From positions 1-64,000 of IMG/VR virus record IMGVR_UViG_2821091796_000001: 64,000 nt of DNA; one strand, written 5' to 3'. The position numbers and the translations under genes were made by a program. Origin of the DNA: a virus. Lineage: Duplodnaviria; Heunggongvirae; Uroviricota; Caudoviricetes. Shown here piece by piece: positions 2,944 to 33,434 of the stretch (position 1 is its first letter; each line of letters opens with the position of its first letter). Under the pieces are notes generated by a model, which saw only the letters and a list, made by a program, of their open reading frames with translations, did not search any database and was not told the origin of the DNA.

Positions 2944-3192
2944 GATACTCACACAAATGATGCAACGGAATGGCCGAGCTTCGCACAGGAGCTCGGTCGC
3001 AAATCGCTCGAGACCGTCGAGACGTGGGTGAAACGCTACAACGCCAGAAAGATTACGGCGCGTGAGCTCTTCATCCTGGTCAGCGCGATCTACGACAGCG
3101 TTTCCGGACTGGTCCCGCGTGATGATCTTGACGTGATTGGCGCTGTCCACGAGGAACTGCGTCAAGCTTCGAAGAAGGCAAAAGCGAAATGA
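2935..3192 (+). CDS. hypothetical small protein
   Basis: 85 aa ORF; start codon lies inside a copy of the palindromic motif. Confidence 0.35.
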   Translation: MMTDTHTNDATEWPSFAQELGRKSLETVETWVKRYNARKITARELFILVSAIYDSVSGLVPRDDLDVIGAVHEELRQASKKAKAK

Positions 3193-6345: not shown

Positions 6346-6741
6346 ATGCCGCGTTTTATCGTAGAGAAGCTGCAGGACGCATATGTGCGCTATCAGACCG
6401 TCGTTGATGCGGACAATGCACAGGACGCCAAAGACAAGGTCAAAGCCTGGACATTCGTCGGCCAATGGGTGCCAACCGGACATGTCGATGAGTATGACCA
6501 TTTCGATATCTCGGACAATGATCCGGAGAAGGTCGAGGACGATCACGTCATTGCAGAGGATGTTGCAATCAGCGTCTCCGAGCAGGCTCGTGACATCATC
6601 ATTGCCGCGCTTCGGCTATGGCAGCGGCTTGATACATTCAGCATTCCACACTCCATCGAGGAGCTCGCTCGTAACGGTCGCGCATCCTACTTATCAAATG
6701 AAGAAATTGATGAGTTGGTGGAGTCAGTCAATCATGATTGA
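6346..6741 (+). CDS. hypothetical protein
   Basis: 131 aa acidic ORF preceded by palindromic motif. Confidence 0.4.
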   Translation: MPRFIVEKLQDAYVRYQTVVDADNAQDAKDKVKAWTFVGQWVPTGHVDEYDHFDISDNDPEKVEDDHVIAEDVAISVSEQARDIIIAALRLWQRLDTFSIPHSIEELARNGRASYLSNEEIDELVESVNHD

Positions 6742-6982
6742 TCTTTACCACGTGCACGAACGCTACAGTGACGACGACAATTCGCTCCTCGTGCGCGCAT
6801 CTTCCCCGGAAGAGGCCGCGAAACTCTGGTGGGAATATTACGAGTATGAACCGGATCCGATGATGGGTGAGATCGCCATCTCGCTTTGCATGGCTGACCT
6901 CAACGTAATTGGCGCAATTCCTTGGAACCAGACTCTTGGCATGTTCGAGGTCGGCGCAAAGAAGATCGAGGACTGGCTCTGA
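6734..6982 (+). CDS. hypothetical protein
   Basis: 82 aa ORF from internal ATG of track ORF 6383, overlaps neighbours. Confidence 0.3.
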   Translation: MIDLYHVHERYSDDDNSLLVRASSPEEAAKLWWEYYEYEPDPMMGEIAISLCMADLNVIGAIPWNQTLGMFEVGAKKIEDWL

Positions 6983-7440
6983 TGTGGATCAACTTTGACG
7001 ATAAGCAGCTCGAATACGTTAAAGCAGCAATGATTGCCTTTGCGGACGGCAACGAGCGCGATGCCAAGTTATTTTGGCTCGAAGAGCTTCGCGACTTACG
7101 TGAACGTCTGGAACAAGAAGCCAAGGACTATCGCTCAATCGCCGCAAAGATCGATGAGAGCAAGGCCAACTTTGATCCGAACGATCCGTATCTCGCTGCG
7201 GCAAGGGAAGCCGCCAATCACGAGCTCGAAATCGATGAAGATGCCGCCGTTTCACCTGGTGCTGATCCGGGCGCATGGGTTCAGGCCTGGATTTGGGTAT
7301 CGAACGAAGCAGCAGGTCTCGATGTCGAAGATACCTGTCGGGATTGCTTAGAGGAGTATGCGGAAGGCGGAGACGGTTACAACGGTCGCTGTCCGGATTG
7401 TGCCGACGCCGCAGAGGCCAGAGGAGATTCCGATGACTAA
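6982..7440 (+). CDS. hypothetical protein with C-terminal Cys4 zinc ribbon
   Basis: CRDC...CPDC near C-terminus. Confidence 0.35.
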   Translation: MWINFDDKQLEYVKAAMIAFADGNERDAKLFWLEELRDLRERLEQEAKDYRSIAAKIDESKANFDPNDPYLAAAREAANHELEIDEDAAVSPGADPGAWVQAWIWVSNEAAGLDVEDTCRDCLEEYAEGGDGYNGRCPDCADAAEARGDSDD

Positions 7441-7603
7441 TAACCACGAAGCCATCGACAAGATTGCCAACGCAATAATTGACAGCCGCCCCGATCTTGA
7501 GCCGTTAAGTCTCGATGAGTGGTTACTTGAGCATTCGGAAAAACTGTCGCTGCGCGAGACGGATGCGGCTATCGCAATCCTTCGTCTCTATGACGAACAA
7601 TAG
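7433..7603 (+). CDS. hypothetical small protein
   Basis: 56 aa from internal ATG. Confidence 0.3.
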   Translation: MTNNHEAIDKIANAIIDSRPDLEPLSLDEWLLEHSEKLSLRETDAAIAILRLYDEQ

Positions 7604-7612
7604 GAGAATAAC

Positions 7613-8998
7613 TTGATTGATGGTTTCAAGCTGATCTCGTGGGGCTTTCCTACGGGCAAATGGTTCGGCTCTGCACTGGAAGAGGCTCAGAACATGGAGC
7701 GTCTCGGAGCGAGCGAACAGGAAATTTTCGACGCGCTTAAGGATCACGTTCCGGTTGAGATCGGCATGCGCACAAACTCCATTCCCTACAGCGTCTTCCT
7801 TGAGCCGGAGAACGACGAAGAGCGTGCAAATCTGGCTTCGGTCAACGCACATATGGACGCTCTTTTGCGAGTTCCTACGATTGTTTCTGGCGCTATCATG
7901 CCGGACGCCTGTCCTGCTGGCTCGCAGCTTGGAACGATCCCGGTAGGCGGTGTCGTTGCGACAAAGGATGCGATTCATCCTGGCTTTCATTCAGCGGATA
8001 TTTGCTGCTCGATGTTCATGACAGTCTTCAATCGTCAGGACGATCTGAAGCGGATCTTGGATATCGCAATGAAGGTTACGCATTTCGGACCTGGCGGCCG
8101 GGAAGACTTTAATATGAGCCCAGCGCTCCATGCTCAGTTCGATCAGAACCACTTCCTAAAGGGTCTGAACAATATCGGTGATTATGCGATGGGAACACAG
8201 GGCGACGGCAATCACTTCCTTTACGTCGGCACGCTCGAATCTACAGGACAGCCAGCGATCGTCACGCATCACGGTTCGCGCAATGTCGGCGCCCAGCTTT
8301 ACAAGCGAGGCATGGCTGCAGCAAAACGGCACACTTCGATTGTGGCACCGCGGATCCCATCGCACAATGCTTGGATCGATGCGAATAGCGCCGATGGCGA
8401 GTCCTATTGGGAGGCACTCCAGATTGTGCGCGAGTGGACGAAGGCCAATCACGCCATAATTCACGATACGATTGCGCGAATCCTCGGTAACAAGGTCGTC
8501 GGGCAAATGTGGAACGAACACAACTTTGTCTTCCGGCGGACAGATGGGCTTTTCTATCACGGAAAAGGCGCAACGCCGTCTTTCAAGGGCTTTGCGGCGG
8601 ACGAAACAGGACGGACTTTGATCCCATTGAATATGAGCGAGCCAATCCTGATCGCTGAACCAACAGATAAGAAAGAAGCCCTTGGCTTTGCGCCGCATGG
8701 TGCCGGACGAAACACTGGACGCAAGAATTATCTGCGCGGTCTAGCCGCGAAGTTTGGAGATCCGGAAGGTCTGTCTCCAATCATGGAGAAAGCAATCTTT
8801 GAAGATCAGACGGAGGGTCTAGACATTCGCTCCTACTCCGGAACGCCAGATTTGTCAGAACTACCTGGCGCTTACAAGAACGCAGCCGCTGTCACGCAGC
8901 AAATCCACAAATTCGGTCTCGCCAATCTGGTGGACTCGGTAATTCCCTACGGCTCAATCATGGCTGGCGAACAGAAGTGGGATAGAGGCAGAAAATGA
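7613..8998 (+). CDS. rtcB: RtcB-family RNA 3'-phosphate ligase
   Basis: GTQGDGNHF, NEHNFVFR, PHGAGRN motifs of RtcB; TTG start after aggaga SD. Confidence 0.75.
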   Translation: MIDGFKLISWGFPTGKWFGSALEEAQNMERLGASEQEIFDALKDHVPVEIGMRTNSIPYSVFLEPENDEERANLASVNAHMDALLRVPTIVSGAIMPDACPAGSQLGTIPVGGVVATKDAIHPGFHSADICCSMFMTVFNRQDDLKRILDIAMKVTHFGPGGREDFNMSPALHAQFDQNHFLKGLNNIGDYAMGTQGDGNHFLYVGTLESTGQPAIVTHHGSRNVGAQLYKRGMAAAKRHTSIVAPRIPSHNAWIDANSADGESYWEALQIVREWTKANHAIIHDTIARILGNKVVGQMWNEHNFVFRRTDGLFYHGKGATPSFKGFAADETGRTLIPLNMSEPILIAEPTDKKEALGFAPHGAGRNTGRKNYLRGLAAKFGDPEGLSPIMEKAIFEDQTEGLDIRSYSGTPDLSELPGAYKNAAAVTQQIHKFGLANLVDSVIPYGSIMAGEQKWDRGRK

Positions 8999-9186
8999 GT
9001 GAAGACCTCCGCCGGGAGATTGCTGAAATCCTGGAGATCATCGCCAAGGATGGTCTGCCAGGTCCACGCGATCTGGACGTTGCGCTTGACGCCATCGAGT
9101 GCAGTATTAGGGCGCATAATAAACTGTCTGATCAGGAATCTACATAATCCAGATGCAGCCCTGATCAGCTTTGCTATAACTGCAAC

Positions 9187-9206
9187 AGTCAATCAATTTT
9201 GACTTA
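9187..9206. promoter_or_regulatory. palindromic motif copy
   Basis: agtcaatcaattttgactta, 23 nt before ATG 9230; TTGCTATAAC box just upstream (approx 9166-9176). Confidence 0.55.
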
Positions 9207-9229
9207 TCTTTAAGAGAGAGAGAACAAAT

Positions 9230-9583
9230 ATGAACCTTTCAAATATTGAACTCGGCACGAAGCTTGCTGGCGAACTCACGGTTTTACGTCGCCGCGCACG
9301 AAACATTCGCGACGGAGGTATGAGCATTAGCGTCGGTCGTGAAGGCTGGACGCCAAGCGAAACTGTTCGTGAACGCACTGCTCAACTGATGCTGGAAGAG
9401 CTCGCCGGCCAAGAACGCAAGATACTTGAAGAACTCAGCCATATCGGCATCTACGACGATGGCAAAAGCCGGCCGGCTGCAGTGGGCGAAAGCAAGTCCG
9501 CCGATGAGTGCGGATTCACCCACATCGGCGATGTTATCATTCCCGGCTTTGGCTCAGTGCCGGGCTTCGCATTCCGATCGTAG
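9230..9583 (+). CDS. hypothetical protein
   Basis: 117 aa ORF preceded by TTGCTATAAC promoter-like box and palindromic motif. Confidence 0.4.
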   Translation: MNLSNIELGTKLAGELTVLRRRARNIRDGGMSISVGREGWTPSETVRERTAQLMLEELAGQERKILEELSHIGIYDDGKSRPAAVGESKSADECGFTHIGDVIIPGFGSVPGFAFRS

Positions 9584-9744
9584 CCCCCAGCAACTCTTCG
9601 GAGTGATCATCCTTCCAACCGAGCGAGAAGCATCATGCAATTTTTCCTGGCCAGTCTCGGGTTCGCAGTCATTGCCCTGCTCTTGGGCTACGGCGTCTAC
9701 AAACTGATCGGCGACGTCCGGTTCAATTCCCACAACAAACGCAA

Positions 9745-10597
9745 ATGAGGTTTACCTTGCGTCCAATTCACATTCTATCCGGTATCGTCTTTCTCGCCCT
9801 GGCGTTTCTCAGCGTCACTTCGTTCTACACGGTCGATGAAGGCGAACGAGCGGTGATTATCACTCAAGGAAAGATCGTCGGCGTGTCCGAACCTGGTTTT
9901 CATTGGAAGTGGCCATTCATTACTGAAGCTCATACCGTTTCGCTTCGCGATGGTCTCGCCCAGTATGAGAACATAGAGGCCTATACCCGCGATGCGCAGA
10001 CGGCGACGATTCACAAGGTATCGCGTGAAGGCTGAAACGAAGTCAATCCTTGAGGTCTACACCCGCTACGGCACGGCAGAGAATGCCGTTCGCCAGATGA
10101 TTGATCGCAGGATCTCCGAGAGCCTTGAGCGTGTCTTCGGTCAGTTCACAGCTGATACTGCCATCCAGAAACGTGCTGAGCTGGGCGCGCAGTTCTCCGC
10201 GCAGATCAGGGACGCTATAGGTCCGGTCGAGATTGTGAGTGTCCAGATCGAGAACTTCTCGTTCTCCGATGGCTACGAAAAGAACGTAGCCGAGAAGATG
10301 ACGCAGGAGGTAGAGGTCAAGAAGCTTGAGCAGAAAGCTCTGCAGGCCAAAATCACCGCCGATATCACCGTGACCAATGCGAGGGCCGAGGCTGACGCTA
10401 ATCTTGCCCGCGCAACGGCATCTGCTGAAGGTGTGCGTCTGCAGGGTGAAGCCGAGGCCAGTGCGATTAAAGCGAAGTCTGACGCTCTGCGCGAAAGCCC
10501 GAACCTGGTTGAACTGACCAAAGCCGAGCGATGGGATGGAAAACTGCCGACGAGCTTCGTGCCTGGCTCAACAATTCCCTTCGTCAACATCAAGTAA
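9745..10597 (+). CDS. SPFH/Band-7 (prohibitin/HflKC-like) membrane protein, reading frame interrupted (+1 change near 9992-10035)
   Basis: N-terminal TM helix; SPFH core spans two overlapping track ORFs (9745..10035 and 9992..10597) in different frames; C-terminal coiled coil. Confidence 0.55.
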
Positions 10598-10621
10598 CAG
10601 TCCTCCCAGGCTGAAACGAAA

Positions 10622-10648
10622 GGGCGTGCTGCGGCACGCCCTTTTTCG
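10622..10648 (+). terminator. rho-independent terminator
   Basis: gggcgtgc-tgcg-gcacgccc followed by TTTTT. Confidence 0.6.
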
Positions 10649-10749
10649 TTGTCTACAGCGTGCCACGGCTGATCCCATGCGCATTTACCAGCCGATCGCC
10701 ATTTCAGCGCGTGCGAGTATCAATCATCGCAACACGAAGGAGACGCGCG

Positions 10750-11028
10750 ATGGCTTTGATTTACGATGAGAACAACAAATCAGACTTCACTGGCTCGATT
10801 GATCGCATCAACGGCACGAACGCTTATCTGCGCCATTACGCAAACTACCTCTATTTAACTTTTATCCTTGCCAATGGCACGCGCGTCGAAAAGCAGGACG
10901 CATCCAAGGAACTGATCATATGCGAGCGCAAGATGAAGTTCTGGCAAAGACACCCTCGCTACGTCCACGAAGATGCAATGCGTGGCATCGAGCAGCTCAA
11001 GCGAGATTGGGACTCAAAGGCAGCATAG
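10750..11028 (+). CDS. hypothetical protein
   Basis: 92 aa ORF. Confidence 0.4.
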   Translation: MALIYDENNKSDFTGSIDRINGTNAYLRHYANYLYLTFILANGTRVEKQDASKELIICERKMKFWQRHPRYVHEDAMRGIEQLKRDWDSKAA

Positions 11029-11135
11029 ATACCCGATTTCAACCCAAAGTGCTTCGTGAGATAGTAACGATATGACGATTTCGTTATTTCGTTCTCTGAA
11101 CTACAATGCGCTTTCACGCACAAGGAGACGATATA

Positions 11136-11300
11136 ATGAAACGAAATCCGATTGCTCGGGCGCTGGCGTCCGGACACCTCAAACAGCAGAAGATCCGCCC
11201 GAAGAAAGGGAAAGGATCATTTAGACGCAAAAAGGATGACACGGATGCAGATCGACAAGTTCGACAAGATCGCCTACGCGAATATCACACACGCCATTAG
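11136..11300 (+). CDS. ArfA-like (alternative ribosome-rescue factor A family) small protein
   Basis: MKRNPIARALASGHLKQQKIRPKKGKGSFRRKK resembles ArfA core ...LFRQRVEKNKKGKGSYMRK; overlaps next gene in another frame. Confidence 0.4.
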   Translation: MKRNPIARALASGHLKQQKIRPKKGKGSFRRKKDDTDADRQVRQDRLREYHTRH

Positions 11301-11658
11301 CCTTGCTCTCAAAGAAGTTGGCGATCGCTTCGGCGTTGATTTCAGACCAAATGGCGGACAGACCGGTGTTTCGCAGGGTCGCATTGACCTTCAGGTCAAT
11401 GTTCGCAAGCCATCAGACGGACTCCGCCCAGGCGAGAAGAAGTTCCGAATTGACGCAGGCTACTTCGGACTGCCCAATGAAGCCTTTCACACCATTCTCA
11501 CGCACAAAGGTCGCCGCTTTCGAGTTGTGGGCCTCAATTCCAACGCTCCCGTTTATCCGGTCGAGTGTGAAGCACTGAGTGGCGGGCGCGGCTGCAGGTT
11601 CCCTATTCACACTTTACGGAATGCACTTGAAATGGCAAAAGTGGCCAAAGCTGCCTAA
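11236..11658 (+). CDS. hypothetical protein
   Basis: 141 aa ORF. Confidence 0.4.
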   Translation: MTRMQIDKFDKIAYANITHAISLALKEVGDRFGVDFRPNGGQTGVSQGRIDLQVNVRKPSDGLRPGEKKFRIDAGYFGLPNEAFHTILTHKGRRFRVVGLNSNAPVYPVECEALSGGRGCRFPIHTLRNALEMAKVAKAA

Positions 11659-11686
11659 GCCCAATTCACTTGCATACGGAGACGTG

Positions 11687-11929
11687 ATGATCCTTGAAAT
11701 GATGGTTGTTGTTAAAGTCCTCGGTGGCGCTCCTGGCCCCGAGGTCGTCGTTCATACAGGATCCATCACGGAGCGGGATGTATGTCAGAGCCGGATCGTC
11801 AAGATGAATGCTGCGGAACCGATCGATAAGTTCGATTCCAAGGGACGCCCTATTCTGTCGCAGACCTATAAGTGCCTTCCTATCAGTAACAGCGACATTG
11901 AGGACGCCTATAAAGTTCTCCACAAATAA
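11687..11929 (+). CDS. hypothetical protein
   Basis: 80 aa ORF. Confidence 0.35.
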   Translation: MILEMMVVVKVLGGAPGPEVVVHTGSITERDVCQSRIVKMNAAEPIDKFDSKGRPILSQTYKCLPISNSDIEDAYKVLHK

Positions 11930-11932
11930 CAA

Positions 11933-11957
11933 AAAGCCCGCCGAAAGCGGGCTAAAC
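11933..11957 (-). terminator. rho-independent terminator for minus-strand gene
   Basis: A-run then agcccgc-cgaa-agcgggct on + strand = hairpin plus U-tract on minus strand. Confidence 0.55.
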
Positions 11958-11962
11958 TCTAC

Positions 11963-12190
11963 CTAAGCAGCCTTATCGGCTGAATGCGCGCTCTCATCAT
12001 CGCTGATTGGAAACGTATCTGCGCCAAAGTGCGTTAGGTCGCGTGAAACATCCTCAAGGTTCACGGACTTGTAGGCGTTAAAGTCGTCCAGATTGAAGCT
12101 AATTTTGCGCTCCGCGAAAAACTTCGCGGCGGCGTATTCAATCGCGGTTGTCAGTTGGCAGATGAGGACGGCATACTCAGCATGGCGCAT
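11963..12190 (-). CDS. hypothetical protein (divergently transcribed)
   Basis: 75 aa ORF on minus strand followed by AT-rich divergent promoter region 12191-12433 containing TATAAT. Confidence 0.4.
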   Translation of the reverse strand: MRHAEYAVLICQLTTAIEYAAAKFFAERKISFNLDDFNAYKSVNLEDVSRDLTHFGADTFPISDDESAHSADKAA

Positions 12191-12433
12191 CTTTTGTTAT
12201 CTTTCTTTGGCATGATACTCGGTGATTTCTAGGATTGAATTCCTATCATTAATCTCCCACAAGGGCAATATAGAGTCTGTGCAGGAACGGTCAATTATGA
12301 CCAAAGGGTAAAATATCCGGGTCAGGTGCGACATTCTGTCATCTAGTGGAATTTCGTGCAGCCCACCGAAATTTAGCTATAATGAATAGAAGAATGAACA
12401 ACATTAATAATTTAAATCAAGGAGTTAGTTTTT

Positions 12434-12754
12434 ATGTCGTGCAACGCGCCGAACCTGTTCAAGGAAGTAAAGAGTGAATCTCTGCCTGTGGATAAAGTGT
12501 TTGGTGAAATCAATTGTGGCATAATCATGGCACCCGATGGTTCATCAAAGGTGTTCTCCCACGGAGTAAATCAGGAAGGGTTGCTTAAGCGAGTTGAGGA
12601 CATGACCAAGGACGAGCTCGCGATCTATTGGATGGGACAGAAACTGTTCGCTTTGAACCTTGCTCTTAACAATGAGCAATTGATGGCTATTCTGCTCGAC
12701 GCAGCTACCAATCTTGAAGGTGTCAACGCGGATCCACACCATGCCATCCAATAA
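12434..12754 (+). CDS. hypothetical protein
   Basis: 106 aa ORF with SD aaggag. Confidence 0.4.
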   Translation: MSCNAPNLFKEVKSESLPVDKVFGEINCGIIMAPDGSSKVFSHGVNQEGLLKRVEDMTKDELAIYWMGQKLFALNLALNNEQLMAILLDAATNLEGVNADPHHAIQ

Positions 12755-13163
12755 TTCTCTCGAAGCCATGATCAATGAAATGATCGCCACAGGCATTGGC
12801 GCCAATGGCGGATCAGTCATTGCGTCCATTCGCAACCGGTTGATCAAGGATCCTGAGCTTATTGAGCAGATCGTTCCTGGCAAAAAGCTAGTGGACCGGA
12901 AGATGACGCCGGTTGAACGCAGCAAGATTGCTACGAAAGCGGCCTCTGAACTCCGGAGCCAGGAGGCGGAAAAGCGCGACCAGACGGTATTGCCAATACT
13001 TCGCGAAGCAATCGCGGCAAATCCCGCTATATCACTTCGTGAATTGGCAGCAATTCTGAACAAGAGCGGCATCTATCCACTGCGCGCAAAGAGCTGGTCG
13101 CCTGTCGTAGTCAACAACATACTTTTGAGATCGGAAATCTTTCGTGAACCGTCAGAGAATTGA
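12741..13163 (+). CDS. hypothetical protein
   Basis: 140 aa ORF. Confidence 0.4.
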   Translation: MPSNNSLEAMINEMIATGIGANGGSVIASIRNRLIKDPELIEQIVPGKKLVDRKMTPVERSKIATKAASELRSQEAEKRDQTVLPILREAIAANPAISLRELAAILNKSGIYPLRAKSWSPVVVNNILLRSEIFREPSEN

Positions 13164-13392
13164 ATATGCAACCGAGGGCTTTCTTTCAGCGATGCGTCGT
13201 GAGTTCTTGAAACTGCATCCGGCGGATCCCTGTCCCATCAAGCGGCTGGCTGACTACTCGCCGGCACATCGCAGCGCCTTGATGAATGCAATCGGCATTT
13301 CAATGCGGTTTGGCGAGAAGGAGCGCGACAAGGATTTTGATGCATGGATGAAGAAGCGCGCTGAGGATGTAGCCGCAGCGAACGACGCTTAA
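13144..13392 (+). CDS. hypothetical protein
   Basis: 82 aa ORF. Confidence 0.35.
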   Translation: MNRQRIEYATEGFLSAMRREFLKLHPADPCPIKRLADYSPAHRSALMNAIGISMRFGEKERDKDFDAWMKKRAEDVAAANDA

Positions 13393-13430
13393 CTAAACCG
13401 CCCGACACCCGTTGTCGATTCCGTTAATAA

Positions 13431-13450
13431 GTAAGTCAATAATGATTGAC
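13431..13450. promoter_or_regulatory. palindromic motif copy
   Basis: gtaagtcaataatgattgac. Confidence 0.55.
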
Positions 13451-13463
13451 ATTGGAGAGCCGC

Positions 13464-13631
13464 ATGCTCTACACAATCCTCGTCAACGCAGCGCTGCAAG
13501 ACGGAAAAATGCGCGTTCAGCAGGTTTCAGAAGATGAATTCAAGCTTCAAGTCGGAGTCTTAGGCGCCTGGATAACGATCCAGCGTGCCAAGATCGAACG
13601 ACCAAAGTCAAAACTAGAGGTGGTCGCATGA
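13464..13631 (+). CDS. hypothetical small protein
   Basis: 55 aa; palindromic motif 14 nt upstream. Confidence 0.3.
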   Translation: MLYTILVNAALQDGKMRVQQVSEDEFKLQVGVLGAWITIQRAKIERPKSKLEVVA

Positions 13632-13864
13632 GTGCGATGAAACGGATCATCGCGGCGATCTCGCGGGAAGCCAGGGGCGACCAAGATATTGGCCCCCGCA
13701 AGCTTGAGAGTGTTATTTTATACCTGCGCTGCGGCGAGCGCATTGAAGGCGAGTTATTGCCGGTTACAGATGACAGTTTCGTCCGGATTCTGAGCAGCGG
13801 CGGCATTGTTGAATATGTGCCAAATGACGCGATTGATCTTGCGAGGCCGGTATGGCGGAACTAA
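13628..13864 (+). CDS. hypothetical protein
   Basis: 78 aa ORF. Confidence 0.35.
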   Translation: MSAMKRIIAAISREARGDQDIGPRKLESVILYLRCGERIEGELLPVTDDSFVRILSSGGIVEYVPNDAIDLARPVWRN

Positions 13865-14439
13865 CCCTTACCGAAATTATTAGCGACGGCGTCGTCATGG
13901 TTGAGCCCAAAGCAGACGTTACGGCTTTTCAGAAAATCATGGCTGAGTCCATGAAGAAGATGGCGAGCGAGATAGCCGCCAACTATCTGCTGACGCCGCT
14001 GACCGGCCAGCCCACCGGCACGACATTAACTGCCGAAGCAATGTCATGGGCAATCGGCGGTGCGTATCGTGGCGGTAAGAGCGCCATGCGGGACCTTATT
14101 TACGGAATGAAGATGGAGATGGAGCCTCCTGAGAGGATTGAAGTCATCAAGCCTCGAACCATGGACACATTTCACCATCTATACACGCAGAAATGGTCGG
14201 AAGCGCCAATCACCAAAACGGATATGCCCGTAGCGAAATACGAGACTGAGGGATATCCGTCAGCGACGGTGAAGGTGTTTAAGGAAACCATGGATCCGCG
14301 CGACCCTCTCAATCCGAATCCATCGGCCAAAGGCGGCGTTATCAATTATGTCATCAAATGTGGAGACCGGCGCCTCGGAAGATACCACGCAGAGCCGATT
14401 GCAAATTCAGGCGAAGACGTTTCACGAACGTCTCTGTAA
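13852..14439 (+). CDS. hypothetical protein
   Basis: 195 aa ORF. Confidence 0.4.
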   Translation: MAELTLTEIISDGVVMVEPKADVTAFQKIMAESMKKMASEIAANYLLTPLTGQPTGTTLTAEAMSWAIGGAYRGGKSAMRDLIYGMKMEMEPPERIEVIKPRTMDTFHHLYTQKWSEAPITKTDMPVAKYETEGYPSATVKVFKETMDPRDPLNPNPSAKGGVINYVIKCGDRRLGRYHAEPIANSGEDVSRTSL

Positions 14440-14540
14440 AGGACTCGATGAGAGAAACCATCAGATTAAGGTGGAAAAGCAAAAGAGAAATCCGAACTTC
14501 GGACGTTTCTAACCTGGACTTACCGTCCGCGATCCAACGC

Positions 14541-14569
14541 GAATATTGATATCAATCATTATTGATTGA
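14541..14569. promoter_or_regulatory. palindromic motif copy (composite, two overlapping palindromes)
   Basis: gaatattgatatcaatcattattgattga. Confidence 0.55.
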
Positions 14570-14586
14570 ACACACGGAGAGGACAA

Positions 14587-14868
14587 ATGAACACCACAAT
14601 GGAGTCAGCCGTCACGTTGAATTGGCGTCAAGGCTTCCGCGACCGCGGCATGGAACTATATGAGTTCAACGACGCAACGACTGTTCGCACCATGCTGCGT
14701 TTCGGGCGGGAGTGGATTAGGGACGACGATGCAGTTGTCGCCCTGCTCTGCGGTTTTCCGGACGATCAGGCGGAATGGATTGCGGATACGAAGCCGACGC
14801 GGGACAAGCTCATCACAGTGATCGAGGAATTAGAAGGCTGGCTCGAGTGCAAAGGGCTCGTCGAATGA
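14587..14868 (+). CDS. hypothetical protein
   Basis: 93 aa; SD ggagagga; palindromic motif upstream. Confidence 0.35.
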   Translation: MNTTMESAVTLNWRQGFRDRGMELYEFNDATTVRTMLRFGREWIRDDDAVVALLCGFPDDQAEWIADTKPTRDKLITVIEELEGWLECKGLVE

Positions 14869-15131
14869 GTCTCACCGTCCTCAAACCAGTCGTGATCAAG
14901 CCTGCTCCGGTTCAAACTCCGCAGTGCTGCATCGAAGTTCCCGCACCTGGCCACAACCAGACCTGGCGCAATCGCTACAGGAACAAGCGTCCGCATCTTG
15001 ATCCAGACCTCTGTCAGCACGCTTCGACCGTCAAGATTGACGGCAAGCATTACTGCACACCCCATGCCGGCCAGTTGGCACTCAAGAAGTGGCTCGCGGG
15101 TGAATTAATTGAGAAGGAAAAGAAACAATGA
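14865..15131 (+). CDS. hypothetical Cys-containing protein
   Basis: 88 aa, ATGA overlap with upstream gene. Confidence 0.35.
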   Translation: MSLTVLKPVVIKPAPVQTPQCCIEVPAPGHNQTWRNRYRNKRPHLDPDLCQHASTVKIDGKHYCTPHAGQLALKKWLAGELIEKEKKQ

Positions 15132-15610
15132 GACAAATCGCAAGGTATATGTTTGACGCCCTGGATGCCGAAGCTTTCCGCGGCGTCAGAGGCATTCAAG
15201 ATGGTGCTTGGCATGTGAACTGGTCTGTTCGCTCCTACAGGATCAACGACAAGGTAGAAGACAATGTTCTAGTCATCCATGCGATAGAGATTGCTGAGCA
15301 ATACCGTCGTCAGGGATACCTGACCGAAGTGTTTCAAGCAATAATCGACCAAGGTGAGATCGGACAGCAAAAGTTCAACTTTATCCTGTTCGAGAACTGC
15401 GGCGAACACCTTCTTGAGTGCCTTCGAACCAAGCTGATGTTCTCCATAACAGATCCTACCTGGCGTCGACTTGCTCATCGGGAAATCGCTCCGTTTCTGC
15501 CATTCGCCAATCGCGATATAGAAGCGCAGCAGAAGCGTTCGGGATCCCAAGCGCGCATTCCCTCGGAAACGTTGATGGATCGCGTGAGTGACGAACCTCG
15601 CGAATCCTGA
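15128..15610 (+). CDS. hypothetical protein
   Basis: 160 aa ORF. Confidence 0.4.
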   Translation: MRQIARYMFDALDAEAFRGVRGIQDGAWHVNWSVRSYRINDKVEDNVLVIHAIEIAEQYRRQGYLTEVFQAIIDQGEIGQQKFNFILFENCGEHLLECLRTKLMFSITDPTWRRLAHREIAPFLPFANRDIEAQQKRSGSQARIPSETLMDRVSDEPRES

Positions 15611-15675
15611 TCTACCCAATCGCTCCCCTGCGCGCATCTGCTATATTGAATAATGTAAGCAGTTAACGAAAAATA

Positions 15676-15695
15676 GTAAGTCATAATTGATTGAC
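15676..15695. promoter_or_regulatory. palindromic motif copy upstream of tRNA cluster
   Basis: gtaagtcataattgattgac, ~170 nt before tRNA-Met. Confidence 0.5.
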
Positions 15696-15863
15696 ATTTG
15701 GTCCCAGAAATGCGAGGAGATAGACATGAAGTTGTAAGCGTAATTGTCCTGGTAACATCACAAAAGCGCCAACCGCAATAAGCGGGACTTTCTGAGGGAT
15801 GCCTATCTCTCGTGCCTGCTCCGGGGCCTAATCCGGAGCAACCAATTCGCCGAAAGGCAACAT

Positions 15864-15941
15864 TGCGGAGTAGAGAAGTGGTCTATCTCGTCTGGCTCAT
15901 AACCAGAAGATCGTCGGTTCGAATCCGACCTTTCGCAACCA
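15864..15941 (+). tRNA. tRNA-Met (anticodon CAT; could be Ile2/initiator type)
   Basis: hand-folded cloverleaf: acceptor tgcggag/tttcgca (2 GU pairs), D-arm gaga-agtggtcta-tctc, anticodon arm tctgg-ctCATaa-ccaga, T-arm gtcgg-ttcgaat-ccgac with one extra nt before acceptor, encoded CCA. Confidence 0.6.
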
Positions 15942-15978
15942 AATTGGCTGGCGCTGAACAGCGACGGCAACGAACTAC

Positions 15979-16054
15979 GGTGTGGTAGCGGAATGGTTAC
16001 GCAGCAGACTGCAACTCTGCATGGATGCTGGTTCGAGCCCAGCCCACACCTCCA
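15979..16054 (+). tRNA. tRNA-Cys (anticodon GCA)
   Basis: acceptor ggtgtgg/ccacacc, anticodon arm gcaga-ctGCAac-tctgc, T-arm gctgg-ttcgagc-ccagc, discriminator T, encoded CCA. Confidence 0.7.
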
Positions 16055-16247
16055 GAGCACCAACGGGGCGGCTGCAGCCAGAGCCCGTTGCGTAAACGTC
16101 AGCGTAGGCGTGACAGTCGGGAGAGATCCGGCACATTGGTCCCGCCGCTCGAAGACTAAAGGATGGATAGTTCGAAACGTCCTTCTGGTGTCAGGGGTGG
16201 CCCTAGAGAGAGCAAGTGGTCAAGGTCGTGCGCAAGACCAAGATCCA

Positions 16248-16275
16248 AGAGGTTCGACTCCTCGGCGGGGCTCCA
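16248..16275 (+). ncRNA. tRNA-like 3' element (T-arm + acceptor strand + CCA); full tRNA not resolved by hand
   Basis: gagg-ttcgact-cctc then gcggggc-t-cca; no canonical 5' acceptor within 90 nt (possible partner gtcccgc at 16139 would give a 137-nt RNA). Confidence 0.3.
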
Positions 16276-16603
16276 AATTCGCCCGAAAGGGCAACCGAGA
16301 GTGGTCCGGTTCGATCCCGGCTCGTTGACCGAGATCTGGTGAGAAAAGCAGGTTCAACTCCTCGCCTCGCGAATGAGGTTCTCTGATCCATGTGGTGATG
16401 GATGGTCTGACAGCTCGGAAAGACGGCACGATATTCGAATGCTCTTGGGGCTCATTGCAGCCGAGGACTTTTCACAGCGGTAGGTGAAGATAGTCTCAAG
16501 AGCTTTGCAGGGCGCGGTTTGCGCATTCGGGAAGCCCCCTAGCTAGGGGCCGAGAGTTTGGCGGCAGATAGGTTCGCGGCCTCCGAGGTGATCGCCGGAG
16601 GCG

Positions 16604-16631
16604 TGAGGTTCAATTCCTCACCCATGCGCCA
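16604..16631 (+). ncRNA. tRNA-like 3' element (T-arm + acceptor strand + CCA); full tRNA not resolved by hand
   Basis: tgagg-ttcaatt-cctca then cccatgc-g-cca; upstream 7-bp hairpin gcctccg...cggaggc; no matching 5' acceptor found. Confidence 0.3.
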
Positions 16632-16648
16632 TTTCTTCGCGCAGTTTC

Positions 16649-16668
16649 GTCAATCAATGGTGATTGAC
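16649..16668. promoter_or_regulatory. palindromic motif copy
   Basis: gtcaatcaatggtgattgac. Confidence 0.55.
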
Positions 16669-16685
16669 TTCGAGGGGAACCACAA

Positions 16686-16829
16686 ATGCTCGATGACCTA
16701 GATACAGGATTCTTCCATACCAAGCCGCGCAAGAAGGAGCTTGGTGTCGTGACAGCGATTCTTGCCATCACCGTCGCGGCCGGCATCGTTGCGCTGCTAA
16801 CCGTCGTGGTCGACTTTATCCAGAACTAA
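16686..16829 (+). CDS. small hydrophobic membrane protein (47 aa, not in ORF track)
   Basis: MLDDLDTGFFHTKPRKKELGVVTAILAITVAAGIVALLTVVVDFIQN; palindromic motif 17 nt upstream. Confidence 0.35.
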   Translation: MLDDLDTGFFHTKPRKKELGVVTAILAITVAAGIVALLTVVVDFIQN

Positions 16830-16889
16830 CCAGCCGATCGCCTGCTCTGTTCGTGAGAAAAACGAGCATGTGCAACTCATGAGAGAAGC

Positions 16890-17174
16890 GTGATGAAACA
16901 ACAGTATAACGAAGCGGAAATAGCGGCGCGGTTCATCTGCGTAGATTGCTCGGTCGATACGTGTGAGAGCAATGAATACTACATGGTGCAGGATGCTGTT
17001 TGGAAAGAGGCAGGTATGACGCCGGATGGTGGAATGCTGTGCCTCGGCTGTCTCGAAGACAGGCTAAAACGCCAGCTCAAGCCGCATGACTTTCCCGACT
17101 ATCCTATCAATCACGGCGTATTCCCACGCTTCGATCGCATGATGAATCGGCTCGGCTATAGAAGAGCTGCATAA
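16890..17174 (+). CDS. hypothetical Cys-rich (zinc-finger-like) protein
   Basis: CVDC...CLGC pairs. Confidence 0.35.
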   Translation: MMKQQYNEAEIAARFICVDCSVDTCESNEYYMVQDAVWKEAGMTPDGGMLCLGCLEDRLKRQLKPHDFPDYPINHGVFPRFDRMMNRLGYRRAA

Positions 17175-18000: not shown

Positions 18001-19296
18001 ATGACAAAGACTATTTCCACAATTATCGGTGGGGCGCTTCTTCTAACCAGTGTCGCTACGGCAGCTCAGGCAGGTGGCCTTGAGCGCGGTGGTTACAACT
18101 GGGATCTCCTCTTCAGTGAAGAGCGTTTTGCGACCGAGGGCGGCGTGATCTATGTAATGCCTGATCGCAAGATCAAGAATGCCAAGGATACCTCCACAAA
18201 TCCGCGCCTTGGTCAGGACAATGAGAATTACAAAAAGTCCACAGCCAGTGAAACACCAGACTACTCGGTTTATAAGTTTGGTGCCAAGGTTGGCATCACC
18301 CCGGATTTGGACTGCCTTGGCTCCTACAGCCAGCCATGGGGCGTTCACACGAAGCCAGGTGCCAATTGGGCTGGTGACAATTCGAACATTGAAACGAAGA
18401 TCAGCTCCGACGATTGGGGCCTGACGTGCTCTTACAAATTCCAAGTTACTGAAAAAGGTTCGTTCCGAGTAATCGGCGGCGTTTCCTATCAGGAAGTCGA
18501 GGGTTTCAAGACACGCATGGTCAATGGCGGCATTCCTCTTTCACCTTACGGTAAAGCGGGTTTTGACGGCACCGGTCGTCTGGAACTTAAAGGCGACGGT
18601 GTAGGTTGGCGCATCGGTGGTGCATACGAAATTCCAGAAATCGCGCTCCGTGCCAGCGTCATGTATAATGCGGCCGTGGATCTCGGAGAAGTCGGCGGAA
18701 CTCTCGACCTGAGAGAAATTCCTGGTGCGTTGGCAACTCCTTCAAACCCACTTCCTGGCCGGATTACCGACGTTTATGGCCACGCGAAAATGCCACAGTC
18801 CGTTGAAATCAAACTTCAGAGCGGTTTTGCTCCAGGTTGGCTTGCTTACGGTTCGGTTAAGTGGGTCGACTGGAGTGTGCTGGACGTTATCGCGTTTTGC
18901 CCTGTTGCAACCAAGCCCAGAGGCGGTTGTTCTGCGAGTTCTTCAAATCGTGCAACATCGCTTGACCTGATGTTCCAGGATGGCTGGACGGTAACCGCAG
19001 GCGTCGGTCACAAATTCAACGACCATTGGAGCGGTCAGCTTCAAGTTAGCTGGGACAAGGGCACCACAACGGGTTTGACCACACAGACAGACACCTATCT
19101 GCTCTCGTCCGGTATCGCGTATTCACCAAACAAGAATGTTGAAATTCGTCTTGGCGGCGCAATCGGTTGGCTCTCGTCAGGATCCTACGGCCCAACAAAG
19201 TGCACTGGCAACCAGCCATGCGGCACAGATGTGTCCTATGACTTCGGTGATGACCTCGTGACCGCCGTATCATTGTCTGGCAAGATGAAGTTCTAA
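18001..19296 (+). CDS. FadL/OMPP1/TodX-family outer-membrane beta-barrel protein
   Basis: signal peptide ending AAQA, Gly/aromatic-rich beta-strand pattern, C-terminal ...SLSGKMKF ending in Phe; SD ggggagga. Confidence 0.6.
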   Translation: MTKTISTIIGGALLLTSVATAAQAGGLERGGYNWDLLFSEERFATEGGVIYVMPDRKIKNAKDTSTNPRLGQDNENYKKSTASETPDYSVYKFGAKVGITPDLDCLGSYSQPWGVHTKPGANWAGDNSNIETKISSDDWGLTCSYKFQVTEKGSFRVIGGVSYQEVEGFKTRMVNGGIPLSPYGKAGFDGTGRLELKGDGVGWRIGGAYEIPEIALRASVMYNAAVDLGEVGGTLDLREIPGALATPSNPLPGRITDVYGHAKMPQSVEIKLQSGFAPGWLAYGSVKWVDWSVLDVIAFCPVATKPRGGCSASSSNRATSLDLMFQDGWTVTAGVGHKFNDHWSGQLQVSWDKGTTTGLTTQTDTYLLSSGIAYSPNKNVEIRLGGAIGWLSSGSYGPTKCTGNQPCGTDVSYDFGDDLVTAVSLSGKMKF

Positions 19297-24479: not shown

Positions 24480-24803
24480 GTGAGGCGAGTCATGATGGAC
24501 TATGCGGTAAAGGAAGTCGCCGTTGAAACAGCTCAGATTGGCCGTATGCGCGTTTTAGCGAGCGTGGGCGACTTGGCAAGGTATTTGCTGGAGGAATGGC
24601 CTGACGACGCGGGAGAGAAGCACAGGGCAGCGCGAGAAGCCTGTCTTGAAGCGCTTGCGGGCAAAATCTCTCCGGGCGTCGCGAGGATCGCATTTCTAGA
24701 GGCGGCCGAACAGGACAACGTATGGACCATGGCAACCCAGAGACCTGAATCGACCGGCAAGGTTGAGCACAGATTCAAGCGCCGTGGCGCATATCGCCGC
24801 TAA
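24480..24803 (+). CDS. hypothetical protein
   Basis: 107 aa. Confidence 0.35.
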   Translation: MRRVMMDYAVKEVAVETAQIGRMRVLASVGDLARYLLEEWPDDAGEKHRAAREACLEALAGKISPGVARIAFLEAAEQDNVWTMATQRPESTGKVEHRFKRRGAYRR

Positions 24804-25438
24804 TTCACAATCAACAGCGTGTCGTCGGGAAGCGGCTTCTGTAATTGGAGAGCCTCTTTGAAGGGTGCGGTCATCCAATGATCGACCTCCTCTGGTGTGC
24901 GCAAGATCACCGGCATTGCCTTTGGATGAATCGGCTTGACGACATTGTTTGGATCAGTCGTGAGAAAGCCAAACAGGGTGAAATCACCAGGCCCATCTTT
25001 GACGCGCCTCACGCCGGTCCACTGTGTCCACATACCGGCAAAGAAGAACAGCGGCTTGGTCTGATCCAGGGCGAAGAACACATTGGGCGTCTTTCCCGCC
25101 TCATCCTTGTAAGGGGCCGGCTCAGCAAAGCTGGTCACGGGCACGACGCACCGGTTTTCAAGCCCGTGATATTGTCTCCACCAAGGAAAATGTGAATTGC
25201 GGATATTTGACTGACCGGGATCGTAGTTCTTGCCGACCAGATGCTTAGGATCCGTGGGCAGCCCAAATTGCATAGTCGCCATCTCTCGCACACCATCGGT
25301 GCCATTACGGACGATAGGGGCAAAGGAGTTCTTGTAGACGTTGATATCGGGCTCAAGGTTGCGAGAGATATCTCGCAGAGCGCGAGTGAACAGAGTGATC
25401 TCCGCCTGATTGCTCGCCAGCTTAAAGTAGTTGCACAT
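24800..25438 (-). CDS. SRAP (SOS-response-associated peptidase, YedK/HMCES-like) abasic-site processing protein
   Basis: start MCNYF.. (Met1-Cys2 catalytic nucleophile), ~212 aa, conserved ...PIVRNGTDG ... HSHFPWW-like segments. Confidence 0.6.
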   Translation of the reverse strand: MCNYFKLASNQAEITLFTRALRDISRNLEPDINVYKNSFAPIVRNGTDGVREMATMQFGLPTDPKHLVGKNYDPGQSNIRNSHFPWWRQYHGLENRCVVPVTSFAEPAPYKDEAGKTPNVFFALDQTKPLFFFAGMWTQWTGVRRVKDGPGDFTLFGFLTTDPNNVVKPIHPKAMPVILRTPEEVDHWMTAPFKEALQLQKPLPDDTLLIVN

Positions 25439-25512
25439 CGACGTTCGCCTTCTTGACTCTTTTCCTAAATGAGAACAAATAAGGAACATATTCCGTTTTG
25501 AGCGTCAAGGAT

Positions 25513-30406: not shown

Positions 30407-30864
30407 GATGTTTCTCTTTCTGCGTTGCTTCGAAGTCTCTTATTCGCTTCGATGATTTGACTATAAGCATTTCTCTAAGCTTGTAAAGTCACTTACTGCA
30501 AAATAGATAACTTTTCTTTCATGTGCACATTTGACTCACAGAGCGCGCTAGAGCGCGTTGACGTGTTGCTAAGTGTATGTGAACGCGAAAGAGCTAGAAC
30601 GCGCTGTGTGACGCGCTGTGTTCGAATGCGTATATGTCGCGCGAGTTATCGAGCGTGCATTGAACGAAGTCTTAGAAAATTCGCGTGGTCGCTGTATGGG
30701 ATGCCTTCTGTCGCCTGAGCACTCCGGAAACGAAGCACCTCTATTCGTGGCAGAATGGCGCTCTACGGACGATAGGACGAAGGGACGAAATAGCGAATTC
30801 GCCATTTACCGGACTCGCTGCATTTGGTAATACGCAAGTGGGGACTTGGAGGAGTTGGGGTATC

Positions 30865-31713
30865 TTGTGGCATTTCGTAGAGAATGAAGCTCCTGTCGGG
30901 CCAGTGTCCGAGCAGGAAATGATTGATCGTATTCGTGACGGCCGAATTAAACCGTCAACGCTGGTCTGGTCCGAAGGCGCTGTTGGCTGGGAACCAGCGG
31001 ATACTGTGGAAGCTTTCAACAGGGTGTTCCGCGTAACTCCGCCTCCTCTTCCCTCTGCCACAAAAGAGCCGCCTCCTGTCGTTGCATCCGCTACTGTAAA
31101 AGAAGAACCAAGAGTATCCCTTCGGCCCGAACCGCCCGTAATCGAAGTGCAGGGCTCACCATGGTCTCGCTTCGCAGCTAGAGGGCTCGACCAGGTCATA
31201 TGGTCGATTCCAATGATTTTCGTGCTGTTGATGATTGTGGCGATCACTCACAGTCAGACGTTCATCAAGCTATTGGATAATCGCGTAGCCGCGATCCTGA
31301 TGTCGCTGCCCATCTTCGGTTTGTTCAACGCGCTATCGATGTCGATATTTGGGAACACTCTCGGAAAGGCCCTTATGGGCGTAGTCGTCAAAGCCAAGGA
31401 CGGAGCCAGGGAGGGCTTTCTGTTCTATCTCATTCGCGAGCTAAATGTTCTCGTTGTTGGCTTTGGATTTGGGATTCCATTCGTTTCTCTATTCACGCAA
31501 TTGTATCAGCACAGCCAGGTGAAAACAAAAGGTCAGGCAAGCTACGATAAAGGCGTTGCTCGGGTAGAGGTATATTTCACCAGCAATGTCCGCGTGGGTG
31601 TTGTGCTTACGGCTGTCGTGCTTGCAACCGTGTATTTCAATTCACCTGCCGCGGAACCTCTCGCAATTGCGTTGGGCAAAGCCGCCGGCAGTCTGGTCGC
31701 AAGTTTTCGCTAA
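30865..31713 (+). CDS. DUF4339(GYF-like)-RDD family membrane protein
   Basis: WHFVENEAPVGPVSEQEMIDRIRDGRIKPSTLVWSEGAVGWEPA (DUF4339-like) followed by multi-TM RDD-like domain; start uncertain (TTG 30865 or GTG 30838). Confidence 0.45.
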   Translation: MWHFVENEAPVGPVSEQEMIDRIRDGRIKPSTLVWSEGAVGWEPADTVEAFNRVFRVTPPPLPSATKEPPPVVASATVKEEPRVSLRPEPPVIEVQGSPWSRFAARGLDQVIWSIPMIFVLLMIVAITHSQTFIKLLDNRVAAILMSLPIFGLFNALSMSIFGNTLGKALMGVVVKAKDGAREGFLFYLIRELNVLVVGFGFGIPFVSLFTQLYQHSQVKTKGQASYDKGVARVEVYFTSNVRVGVVLTAVVLATVYFNSPAAEPLAIALGKAAGSLVASFR

Positions 31714-33161: not shown

Positions 33162-33434
33162 TCACTTCGCCGCCTTGTGCTTTTCGACCCAGGCGGCGAA
33201 GGCCTGCTCAAGCAGATCGCGATAACTGATATCGTGCGTTGCAGCCGTCAATTTAAACACGCGTTTGAACTCCTTATCGACCTTGAAGTTCAAATTTGCA
33301 TACTCTGTTTCAGTCATATTGTTCGGAACAGAAGTCGGCGCAAAGGTCGGCACTTCTGACAAACCACCCAGAAACGACGCCCTCGCGCGTTTTGGTGCCG
33401 GAACAGGGGCCTTCGTTGTCTTTGTGTCAGCCAT
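33162..33434 (-). CDS. ParG-like ribbon-helix-helix partition protein
   Basis: 90 aa, disordered basic N-terminus then short helical C-terminus; immediately downstream of and overlapping parA. Confidence 0.45.
   Translation of the reverse strand: MADTKTTKAPVPAPKRARASFLGGLSEVPTFAPTSVPNNMTETEYANLNFKVDKEFKRVFKLTAATHDISYRDLLEQAFAAWVEKHKAAK

Follow-up and report, generated by a model that had tools for sequence, protein, structure and literature searches.

The window analysed here is a stretch of 64,000 nucleotides (nt), positions 1 to 64,000 of the IMG/VR record IMGVR_UViG_2821091796_000001, and all window coordinates follow this numbering. It is part of the genome of a siphovirus-type tailed phage. 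One block of small genes on the plus strand contains an RtcB RNA ligase (7613..8998), a short open reading frame (ORF) that resembles the ribosome rescue factor ArfA (11136..11300) and two tRNA genes (15864-16054). We consider it probable, with some reserve, that these represent three separate translation-supporting functions gathered in one same-strand block: an intact RtcB, two tRNAs and an ArfA homologue that rescues ribosomes. Short ArfA peptides have already been annotated in two phages, and the window ORF is a new member of that family.

The ArfA-like ORF consists of 54 codons and a stop codon and encodes MKRNPIARALASGHLKQQKIRPKKGKGSFRRKKDDTDADRQVRQDRLREYHTRH. A Shine-Dalgarno sequence, AAGGAG at 11122..11127 (+), read directly from the sequence, is located 8 nt upstream of the ATG at position 11136. 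A public Logan contig carries the same sequence, and an independent gene caller predicts on it both the ORF of 54 amino acids (aa) and an overlapping 137-aa gene. The latter (11245..11658, +; precomputed Pfam match Y4mA_C) shares 56 nt with the ArfA-like ORF in a different frame, so that both the small ORF and its overlap are present as the sequence-only reading had described them. The conserved core of the ORF comprises residues 1-33 (11136-11234), and the tail (residues 34-54) is not conserved. The stretch common to the two genes encodes residues 37-54 (from 11245), and the conserved core ends upstream of it. The ribosome-binding site of the 137-aa gene, AAGGA (11231-11235), falls in ArfA codons 32-34. 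No viral relatives of the 137-aa gene were found, and no homologue of it lies beside the ArfA-like genes at other loci. Directly upstream of the ArfA-like ORF is a 92-aa gene (10750..11028, +; called on the public contig), for which no Pfam or PHROG match was obtained; in L041, another locus with an ArfA-like gene, the equivalent place is taken by a homologue with 36% identity. A Band_7 gene lies just upstream of the ArfA-like gene in the window, in L041 and in a third locus, L023, and the order Band_7, 92-aa gene, ArfA is common to the window and L041. The strong Shine-Dalgarno sequence, the independent gene call, the many relatives described below and the gene order kept in L041 indicate that the ORF is coding, and we conclude that 11136-11300 is a real gene.

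The SPFH/Band_7 gene of the window is split into two overlapping frames (9745-10035 and 9992-10597, +), both of which match Pfam Band_7, and its counterpart in L041 is a single intact ORF of 282 aa. The frameshift is located near 10015-10030, where no homopolymer is present; the split may reflect decay to a pseudogene, faulty assembly or programmed frameshifting.

The relationship of the ORF to ArfA, which the sequence-only reading had proposed from a KKGKGSFRRK core, was examined at the level of the single sequence and of the family. The single sequence gave an equivocal picture. The match to the Pfam ArfA profile (PF03889) scored 22.2-22.6 bits (E-value 7e-5 to 1e-4), just below the cut-off of 25.5, and spanned 18 residues only, and a phmmer search of the PDB returned nothing; these two results weigh against the assignment. 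The ORF had no match in NCBIfam, and its sole match in a set of 5.8 billion proteins was its own sequence. The motif region is rich in lysine, and the low-complexity filter of BLAST removes most of it. The short Pfam match below the cut-off and the lysine-rich motif would agree with 11136-11300 being a chance frame or an upstream alternative frame of the next gene, and its likeness to ArfA low-complexity noise. BLASTP against E. coli ArfA, run as a single comparison, gave 41% identity over 32 ungapped residues (ArfA residues 11-42; E-value 3e-4). The wider comparisons were clearer. A tblastn search of cultured phages revealed small related ORFs in six of them, namely Caulobacter phage Cr30, Erythrobacter phages XM05 and vB_EliS-L02, Citromicrobium phage RXM, Microcystis phage Mwe-JY26 and Roseobacter phage CRP-212, and six out of the seven nearest phage ORFs tested passed the Pfam ArfA cut-off (27.1-36.9 bits). 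Over residues 1-33, which include the non-basic N-terminal half, the window ORF is 59-65% identical to ORFs of unrelated phages.

An alignment of 44 members yielded the consensus xxKRNPxAKxL......RxVKPKKGKGSYxRK, with A7, K24, G25, G27, S28 and R31 invariant. The profile derived from it was searched against the whole PDB and found the E. coli ArfA chains only (E-value 7e-11), with profile positions 3-39 aligned to ArfA 13-49. A second profile, built from 43 relatives with the window ORF left out, was run against 1854 six-frame segments of the window; it matched the ORF over its full length with 71.8 bits (E-value 2.9e-21), and the runner-up had an E-value of 0.33. Because a profile made without the ORF scores it this highly, and because the family profile retrieves only ArfA from the PDB, we regard the ORF as real and, as judged from these comparisons, as belonging to the ArfA family, broadly defined. 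The possibility of a chance or alternative frame, which the strong Shine-Dalgarno sequence and the gene order of L041 also contradict, is effectively refuted by the 44-member alignment, the PDB profile search and the leave-out score, and we give it almost no credence. The proposed resemblance therefore stands at the level of family profiles, and not at that of the direct Pfam score.

Matches of another type were not counted as ArfA. An ORF beginning MKKNPVAKALASPHLRKQIVTSKKVYSRKKK... at ~3001-3102 of locus L008 (Agrobacterium phage OLIVR5, and related Rhizobium phages) contains the ArfA N-terminal half without KGKGS. Two annotated hypothetical genes run antisense to this ORF, which has weak matches to DUF7230 and phrog_20887. 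These ORFs may form a sister family (DUF7230, phrog_20887) with a different channel-binding tail.

Short relatives of ArfA turned out to be abundant. A scan of IMG/VR with a deliberately narrow pattern gave at least 215 viral contigs with confirmed relatives, the best 80 of which fell into 51 clusters at 85% clustering. The phage members are ORFs of 33-60 aa. In reference genomes, taken as one per species, at least 285 relatives were found, and the best 80 (L089-L168) belong almost all to Pelagibacteraceae, in which the ORFs are 33-52 aa long, typically 35-45 aa, e.g. MKKRNPIAKDLFTKKYKPKIVKPKKGKGSFKRKKK. The SAR11 loci are flanked by housekeeping genes, among them dapB and the genes for endonuclease III and a PfkB kinase, and these flanking genes are kept in 63-75 of the 80. 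Short ArfA is a syntenic chromosomal gene of SAR11, which conflicts with a survey of 15,259 genomes in which DNA-level profiles detected arfA in none of 2,376 Alphaproteobacteria (PMC11633108). Across phages and SAR11, residues N4, P5 and A7 are near-invariant, and the N-terminal half is the best conserved part of the peptide. The two phage annotations mentioned above were both derived from a Pfam match; they are gp10 of Citromicrobium phage RXM (PMC8953757) and gp30 of pelagiphage HTVC027P, which is transcribed at a high level both early and late in infection (PMC12753301). In PHROGs the short ArfA family is listed under 'unknown function'.

Several of the related ORFs differ from their annotation or from the usual form. 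The ArfA-like ORFs of Cr30 (L002, 2950-3102) and vB_EliS-L02 (L006, 2947-3117) are absent from the GenBank annotation. In CRP-212 (L007, 2992-3114) the ORF is located out of frame within the 3' end of an annotated coding sequence of ~1200 aa, gp38, so that either the ORF is a nested gene or the annotated sequence has been drawn too long. In three IMG/VR loci (L029, L030 and L086) the ArfA-like segment forms the N-terminal part of a lysine-rich protein of 144-166 aa, and the C-terminal region of these fused proteins contains a conserved GAPGQWSxRKAQ motif.

The sequence-only reading had drawn a parallel between the overlap with the next gene and the synthesis of ArfA from a non-stop message. 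The arfA gene of E. coli has 72 codons, and a stem-loop in it leads to RNase III cleavage or premature termination; the resulting non-stop mRNA allows transfer-messenger RNA (tmRNA) to keep ArfA low (PMC8012679). The last 17-18 residues of the E. coli protein are dispensable, and a protein cut to 40 residues has lost its activity (PMC8012679). We found no stable hairpin in or after the window ORF: the fold of 11100-11340 had a z-score of -0.32, and 71 out of 200 shuffled sequences folded equally well. This region contains weak inverted repeats only, and no terminator-like site on the plus strand was detected inside the ORF. Ordinary stop codons terminate both the ORF and its relatives; in the relatives they follow the GS[YF] motif after a median of 12 residues in phages and of 5 residues in SAR11 genomes. 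With no hairpin, an own stop codon and relatives that are likewise self-terminating, synthesis of the window peptide from a non-stop mRNA was rejected, and the parallel does not hold. The 56-nt overlap looks like ordinary gene packing, and on the simplest reading translation just continues into the next gene and adds a tail that is dispensable, not a regulatory device. Since its members have their own stop codons, the short ArfA group should be made constitutively, and the window gene, which has no internal hairpin either, should be free of tmRNA control.

The tail and one position of the core raise the question of whether the window peptide would activate release factor 2 (RF2), as E. coli ArfA does. 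After RRKK the tail turns acidic (DDTDAD), where E. coli ArfA reads GKH(GNR), and the 12 residues that follow the motif carry a net charge of +1 in the window ORF, compared with +4 in E. coli ArfA and a phage mean of +2.8. In ArfA, a KH motif 5-6 residues past the aromatic residue fits a pocket of the mRNA entry channel (PMC8012679). The corresponding position of the window ORF is D34-D35; among the relatives, KH was seen in 6 of 83 from phages and in 1 of 80 from genomes. Residue A18 of E. coli ArfA is critical for RF2 activation, the A18T variant binding and recruiting RF2 and failing to activate it (PMC8012679); members of the phage family have K or R there. Moreover, the pairing of ArfA with RF2 has no known precedent in alphaproteobacterial hosts, compatibility with RF2 across hosts is a further difficulty, and the literature searched contained no functional test or study of a phage ArfA. 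All of these points speak against rescue. The residue at the A18 position, the acidic tail without KH and the lack of a known precedent in such hosts would also suit a peptide that plugs the mRNA channel without activating RF2, i.e. a blocker or decoy, which could keep tmRNA-SmpB or ArfB off stalled ribosomes and so leave truncated phage proteins untagged, could shut down host rescue, or could sequester RF2. The conservation pattern argues for the opposite, as the N-terminal half, which in E. coli contacts RF2 and which mere plugging would not need, is the best conserved part across phages and SAR11. In addition, the same short form is chromosomal and syntenic in SAR11, where rescue is more plausible than self-inhibition. 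We therefore regard a pure blocker as improbable and retain rescue as the preferred function.

The RtcB gene (7613..8998, +) encodes an RNA 3'-phosphate/2',3'-cyclic-phosphate ligase of 461 aa with a TTG start. Its earlier identification was borne out by the match to Pfam PF01139 (E-value 2.4e-30; 106.5 bits, cut-off 27) and by the intact catalytic motifs. The protein is ~60% identical over its full length to RtcB of Rhizobium phage B1VFA, and its best matches are from Rhizobium and Bradyrhizobium phages (58-60%). The motifs DxxC (D-I-C-C), GNHF, HxGSR (HHGSR), HxKGA (HGKGA) and HGAGR (PHGAGR) align with the active site of Pyrococcus horikoshii RtcB, where they correspond to Asp95/Cys98, Asn202/His203, His234, His329 and His404. 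Judged from these motifs, the active site is complete, with the metal-binding and GMP-histidine motifs kept. Assignment to the RtcB2 subtype, which is linked to PrfH, was rejected on the basis of the TIGR03073 score (42.2 bits, cut-off 271.8). A scan of window ORFs, which was not exhaustive, gave no release-factor domain.

Both tRNAs reported earlier were recovered by ARAGORN and by the Rfam tRNA model RF00005 (gathering threshold 29 bits). They are tRNA-Met(CAT) at 15864..15941 (+; 56.4 bits for 15865-15937) and tRNA-Cys(GCA) at 15979..16054 (+; 60.9 bits for 15979-16051), each with an encoded CCA, the latter with a U73 discriminator. The CAT tRNA shares 82-86% identity with tRNA-Met genes from phages of Caulobacter and Vibrio. 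Read directly, its sequence gives A11:U24, a weak U1:A72 pair and, of the three G:C pairs in the anticodon stem, two (G30:C40 and G31:C39); these features appear initiator-like and not elongator-like, and the candidate identities are initiator, elongator Met and Ile2. In 15600-16900, only these two tRNAs passed ARAGORN and Rfam, and no further canonical tRNA, tmRNA, group I intron or other Rfam family was found.

The 630 nt downstream of tRNA-Cys (16055-16685, +) are non-coding and rich in T-arm motifs, with four or five T-arm-like hairpins. The sequence GGTTCRANTCC occurs five times in the window against an expectation of 0.22, and none of 100 shuffles reached five. ARAGORN with relaxed settings placed three degenerate tRNA-like elements here (16179-16275, 16295-16373 and 16542-16631, +), which have good T-arms and two of which end in CCA. 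None of them matched the Rfam tRNA model even at an E-value of up to 10 or showed similarity to other phages, and they were rejected as tRNA genes because the matches are too degenerate. They are probably decayed tRNA genes or tRNA 3' fragments; some T-arms in 16055-16685 are only 43 nt apart and therefore represent fragments instead of complete genes. One more exact T-loop motif, the fifth, has the sequence GGTTCAATTCC and is located at 9720-9730 (+) in a short gap just upstream of the Band_7 gene, where no tRNA was predicted even with relaxed ARAGORN settings.

Whether RtcB, the tRNAs and the ArfA-like gene belong together, as the term 'toolkit' in the sequence-only reading implied, was assessed from the neighbours of ArfA-like genes at other loci. 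From the 51 cluster representatives we collected every ORF of 140 aa or more located up to 4 kb from the ArfA-like gene, which gave 286 proteins, and scanned these against Pfam. An RtcB or Rnl ligase is present within this distance in 4 of 52 lineages, the window included. In L031, an RNA_ligase gene (6648-7811) and RtcB (7815-9173) precede the ArfA-like ORF (10001-10096), with RtcB 0.8 kb upstream. In Microcystis phage Mwe-JY26, RtcB (1097-2236) is 0.7 kb upstream of the ArfA-like ORF (2962-3120). In Caulobacter phage Cr30, the ArfA-like ORF (10001-10102) is flanked by an Rnl2-type ligase (6771-7847) and, 0.4 kb downstream, by a T4 Rnl1-type ligase (10470-11714). In four further viral contigs (L009, L011, L015 and L023) the ArfA-like gene is located inside arrays of 12-31 tRNAs; L009 and L011 share one 85% cluster, so that the four loci represent three lineages.

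These associations have to be set against the possibility that no toolkit exists and that the ligase, the tRNA genes and the ArfA-like gene are unconnected accessory genes, each gained and lost on its own, whose co-location carries no meaning. Several observations agree with it and detract from a functional grouping. In the window, a distance of 2.1 kb separates the end of RtcB from the ArfA-like ORF downstream, a further 4.6 kb lie between this ORF and the start of the tRNAs, and ~20 unrelated small genes are found in between. In 44 or 45 of the 52 lineages the ArfA-like gene has no RNA ligase within 4 kb and lies in no tRNA array, and the Rhizobium phages whose RtcB is closest to that of the window show no ArfA-like ORF. 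T4-like marine phages make up the other half of the lineages and carry the gene amid the replication genes gp44, gp45, gp59 and regA, and the SAR11 copies lie amid housekeeping genes. Independent gain is nevertheless at odds with the recurrence of ligases from three families at 0.4-2.1 kb from ArfA-like genes in four unrelated phages, and with the presence of the gene inside tRNA arrays in four viral contigs. RtcB is present anywhere in only 356 of 50,697 phage records (~0.7%); three RtcB neighbours in 52 lineages, all within ~2 kb, are well above the naive expectation from this frequency. Among the first 143 neighbour proteins, RNA ligases collectively were the commonest functional class, with five proteins compared with at most three for any single family. 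Independent acquisition is thus a possibility that we take seriously and consider rather unlikely, and our preferred reading is that the three form a thematic, loosely linked set and not an operon. The toolkit idea gains some support from ligase neighbours in three other unrelated phages and from tRNA arrays in four contigs, and most lineages have neither. The accompanying suggestion that RtcB plus tRNAs is the classic answer to anticodon nucleases was not upheld. The T4 paradigm against an anticodon nuclease is Pnkp plus Rnl1, and RtcB works without end healing, so that its pathway would differ.

Genes elsewhere in the window place the locus within a phage genome. The large terminase, portal, capsid, a tape-measure protein of 1578 aa and tail protein L are encoded at 45.7-62 kb, and rIIB and an RNase T-like gene sit upstream of the region with RtcB, the ArfA-like ORF and the tRNAs. 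Megablast of the 9-kb region against phages matched the tRNA-Met gene only, and hence this region has no close sequenced relative. An alphaproteobacterial host is likely on sequence grounds, given that the closest RtcB proteins are from Rhizobium and Bradyrhizobium phages and the relatives of the small ORF from Caulobacter, Erythrobacter and Citromicrobium phages. Among the remaining genes, a nicotinamide phosphoribosyltransferase with NAPRTase and NAMPT_N domains (34192-35610, -) adjoins a fusion of a nicotinamide mononucleotide adenylyltransferase-like domain and a NUDIX domain (35661-36719, -); we take this pair to resemble the two-enzyme pathway with which phages rebuild NAD+ against NAD+-depleting defences. 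The window also encodes a 431-aa protein with a Toluene_X/FadL-type outer-membrane beta-barrel domain (18001-19296, +; precomputed Pfam), an unusual phage cargo, as well as a homologue of the SOS-response-associated peptidase SRAP (24800-25489, -), a membrane protein with GYF_2 and RDD domains (30685-31713, +) and a ParA/MipZ-like ATPase (33427-34074, -).

If the ArfA-like peptide acts as its homology predicts, the three functions can be combined into a working model. ArfA is disordered off the ribosome. When a ribosome has reached the 3' end of a cut mRNA and stalled there, its empty mRNA entry channel would be filled by K23-K33, the basic segment KKGKGSFRRKK. Pairing of host RF2 with the conserved N-terminal half of the peptide (NPIARAL...HLKQQKI) would then let RF2 hydrolyse the peptidyl-tRNA. 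Both steps are modelled on E. coli ArfA, whose C-terminal part occupies the mRNA entry channel via redundant basic residues and which adds a beta-strand to RF2 (PMC8012679). Ribosomes would be freed without ssrA tagging, and the window gene, with neither hairpin nor non-stop control, would yield its peptide whenever it is transcribed, unchecked by tmRNA. Cut mRNAs are abundant in an infected cell and arise from phage-driven decay of host mRNA, from host RNase defences and toxins, and from A-site cleavage at ribosomes starved by the cutting of tRNAs. An unregulated ArfA would return the trapped ribosomes to the pool, RtcB could reseal RNAs cut to 2',3'-cyclic-phosphate and 5'-OH ends, and RtcB together with the phage tRNAs would cover damage to tRNA. 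Ribosome binding, dependence on RF2 and a role in infection are thus predictions from the homology, and the functions of RtcB, the tRNAs and ArfA would share a theme, with genes that sometimes travel together in other phages and form no fixed operon.

Ribosome rescue is regarded as a housekeeping function of the host, and ArfA is described as confined to E. coli-like bacteria, its published distribution comprising gamma- and some betaproteobacteria. Phages commonly carry a short, self-terminating ArfA, with a minimum of 215 viral contigs, SAR11 has it as a syntenic gene of the chromosome, and in several unrelated phages it adjoins RNA ligases or lies within tRNA arrays. Should the peptides act like ArfA, phages would actively manage stalled ribosomes during infection, which bears on defences that cut RNA. 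A bolder generalization, which we put forward as speculative and on balance doubtful, is that short ArfA peptides are a widespread phage tool that installs unregulated, RF2-dependent rescue in hosts without one, in company with RNA ligases and tRNAs. If true, this would amount to an answer of the type 'release the ribosome, then repair or replace the RNA' to defences that cut mRNA, tRNA or rRNA, a phage counterpart of PrfH-RtcB2, and ArfA-type rescue would be far wider than its published distribution, being a core gene in SAR11. Caulobacter would be an example of a host that gains a new rescue pathway: in C. crescentus lacking ssrA, arfB is essential (PMC4814080), which argues for a host without a working ArfA back-up, to which Cr30 would bring a new one. 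The window gene is one more member of the short ArfA family, with an unusual acidic tail. At the level of the family, the abundance in phages, the core gene of SAR11, the lack of non-stop control and the recurring ligase and tRNA-array neighbours merit an experimental test.

Comparison with known systems shows both parallels and departures. Like E. coli ArfA (YhdL, PF03889), the window product is a small basic peptide, close in length to the active truncated form (~54-55 aa), and its core N-x-I-x-x-x-L ... [FL]-[KR]-Q-x-x-V ... KKGKGS[YF]xRK aligns without gaps to ArfA 13-49. Unlike E. coli ArfA, it is phage-borne, begins 10 residues later, so that most of ArfA residues 1-14 are missing, terminates at its own stop codon without an internal hairpin, and has DD in place of KH followed by an acidic tail. 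It belongs to the same family as RXM gp10, HTVC027P gp30 and the 35-40-aa gene of SAR11, which are 33-60 aa long and stop soon after the motif, and it differs from them in the 25-residue, partly acidic tail that overlaps the next gene and in the RtcB gene 2.1 kb away. BrfA of Bacillus and ArfT of Francisella are likewise small release factor-dependent rescue factors that place a basic C-terminal part in the mRNA channel, and are functional analogues by description only.

Among phage RNA repair systems, a survey of jumbo phages under the heading 'RNA repair/ribosome rescue' covered tRNAs, RtcB, Rnl1, Rnl2 and PTH2, with zero occurrences of ArfA (PMC7824862). The window resembles these sets and the T4 repair genes in carrying an RNA ligase alongside tRNAs, and in Cr30 the ArfA-like ORF is 0.4 kb from a T4 Rnl1-type ligase; in contrast to the phage tRNA sets that counter anticodon nucleases, the window keeps two intact tRNAs only. 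The PrfH-RtcB2 system of bacteria pairs a stalled-ribosome release factor with an RtcB-family ligase that reseals cut RNA (PMC9304027). In three phages, including that of the window, an ArfA-like gene and RtcB are likewise neighbours; here, however, the release part would be a small recruiter of RF2 instead of an RF2 paralogue, the ligase is RtcB and not RtcB2, and the two genes of the window are not adjacent.

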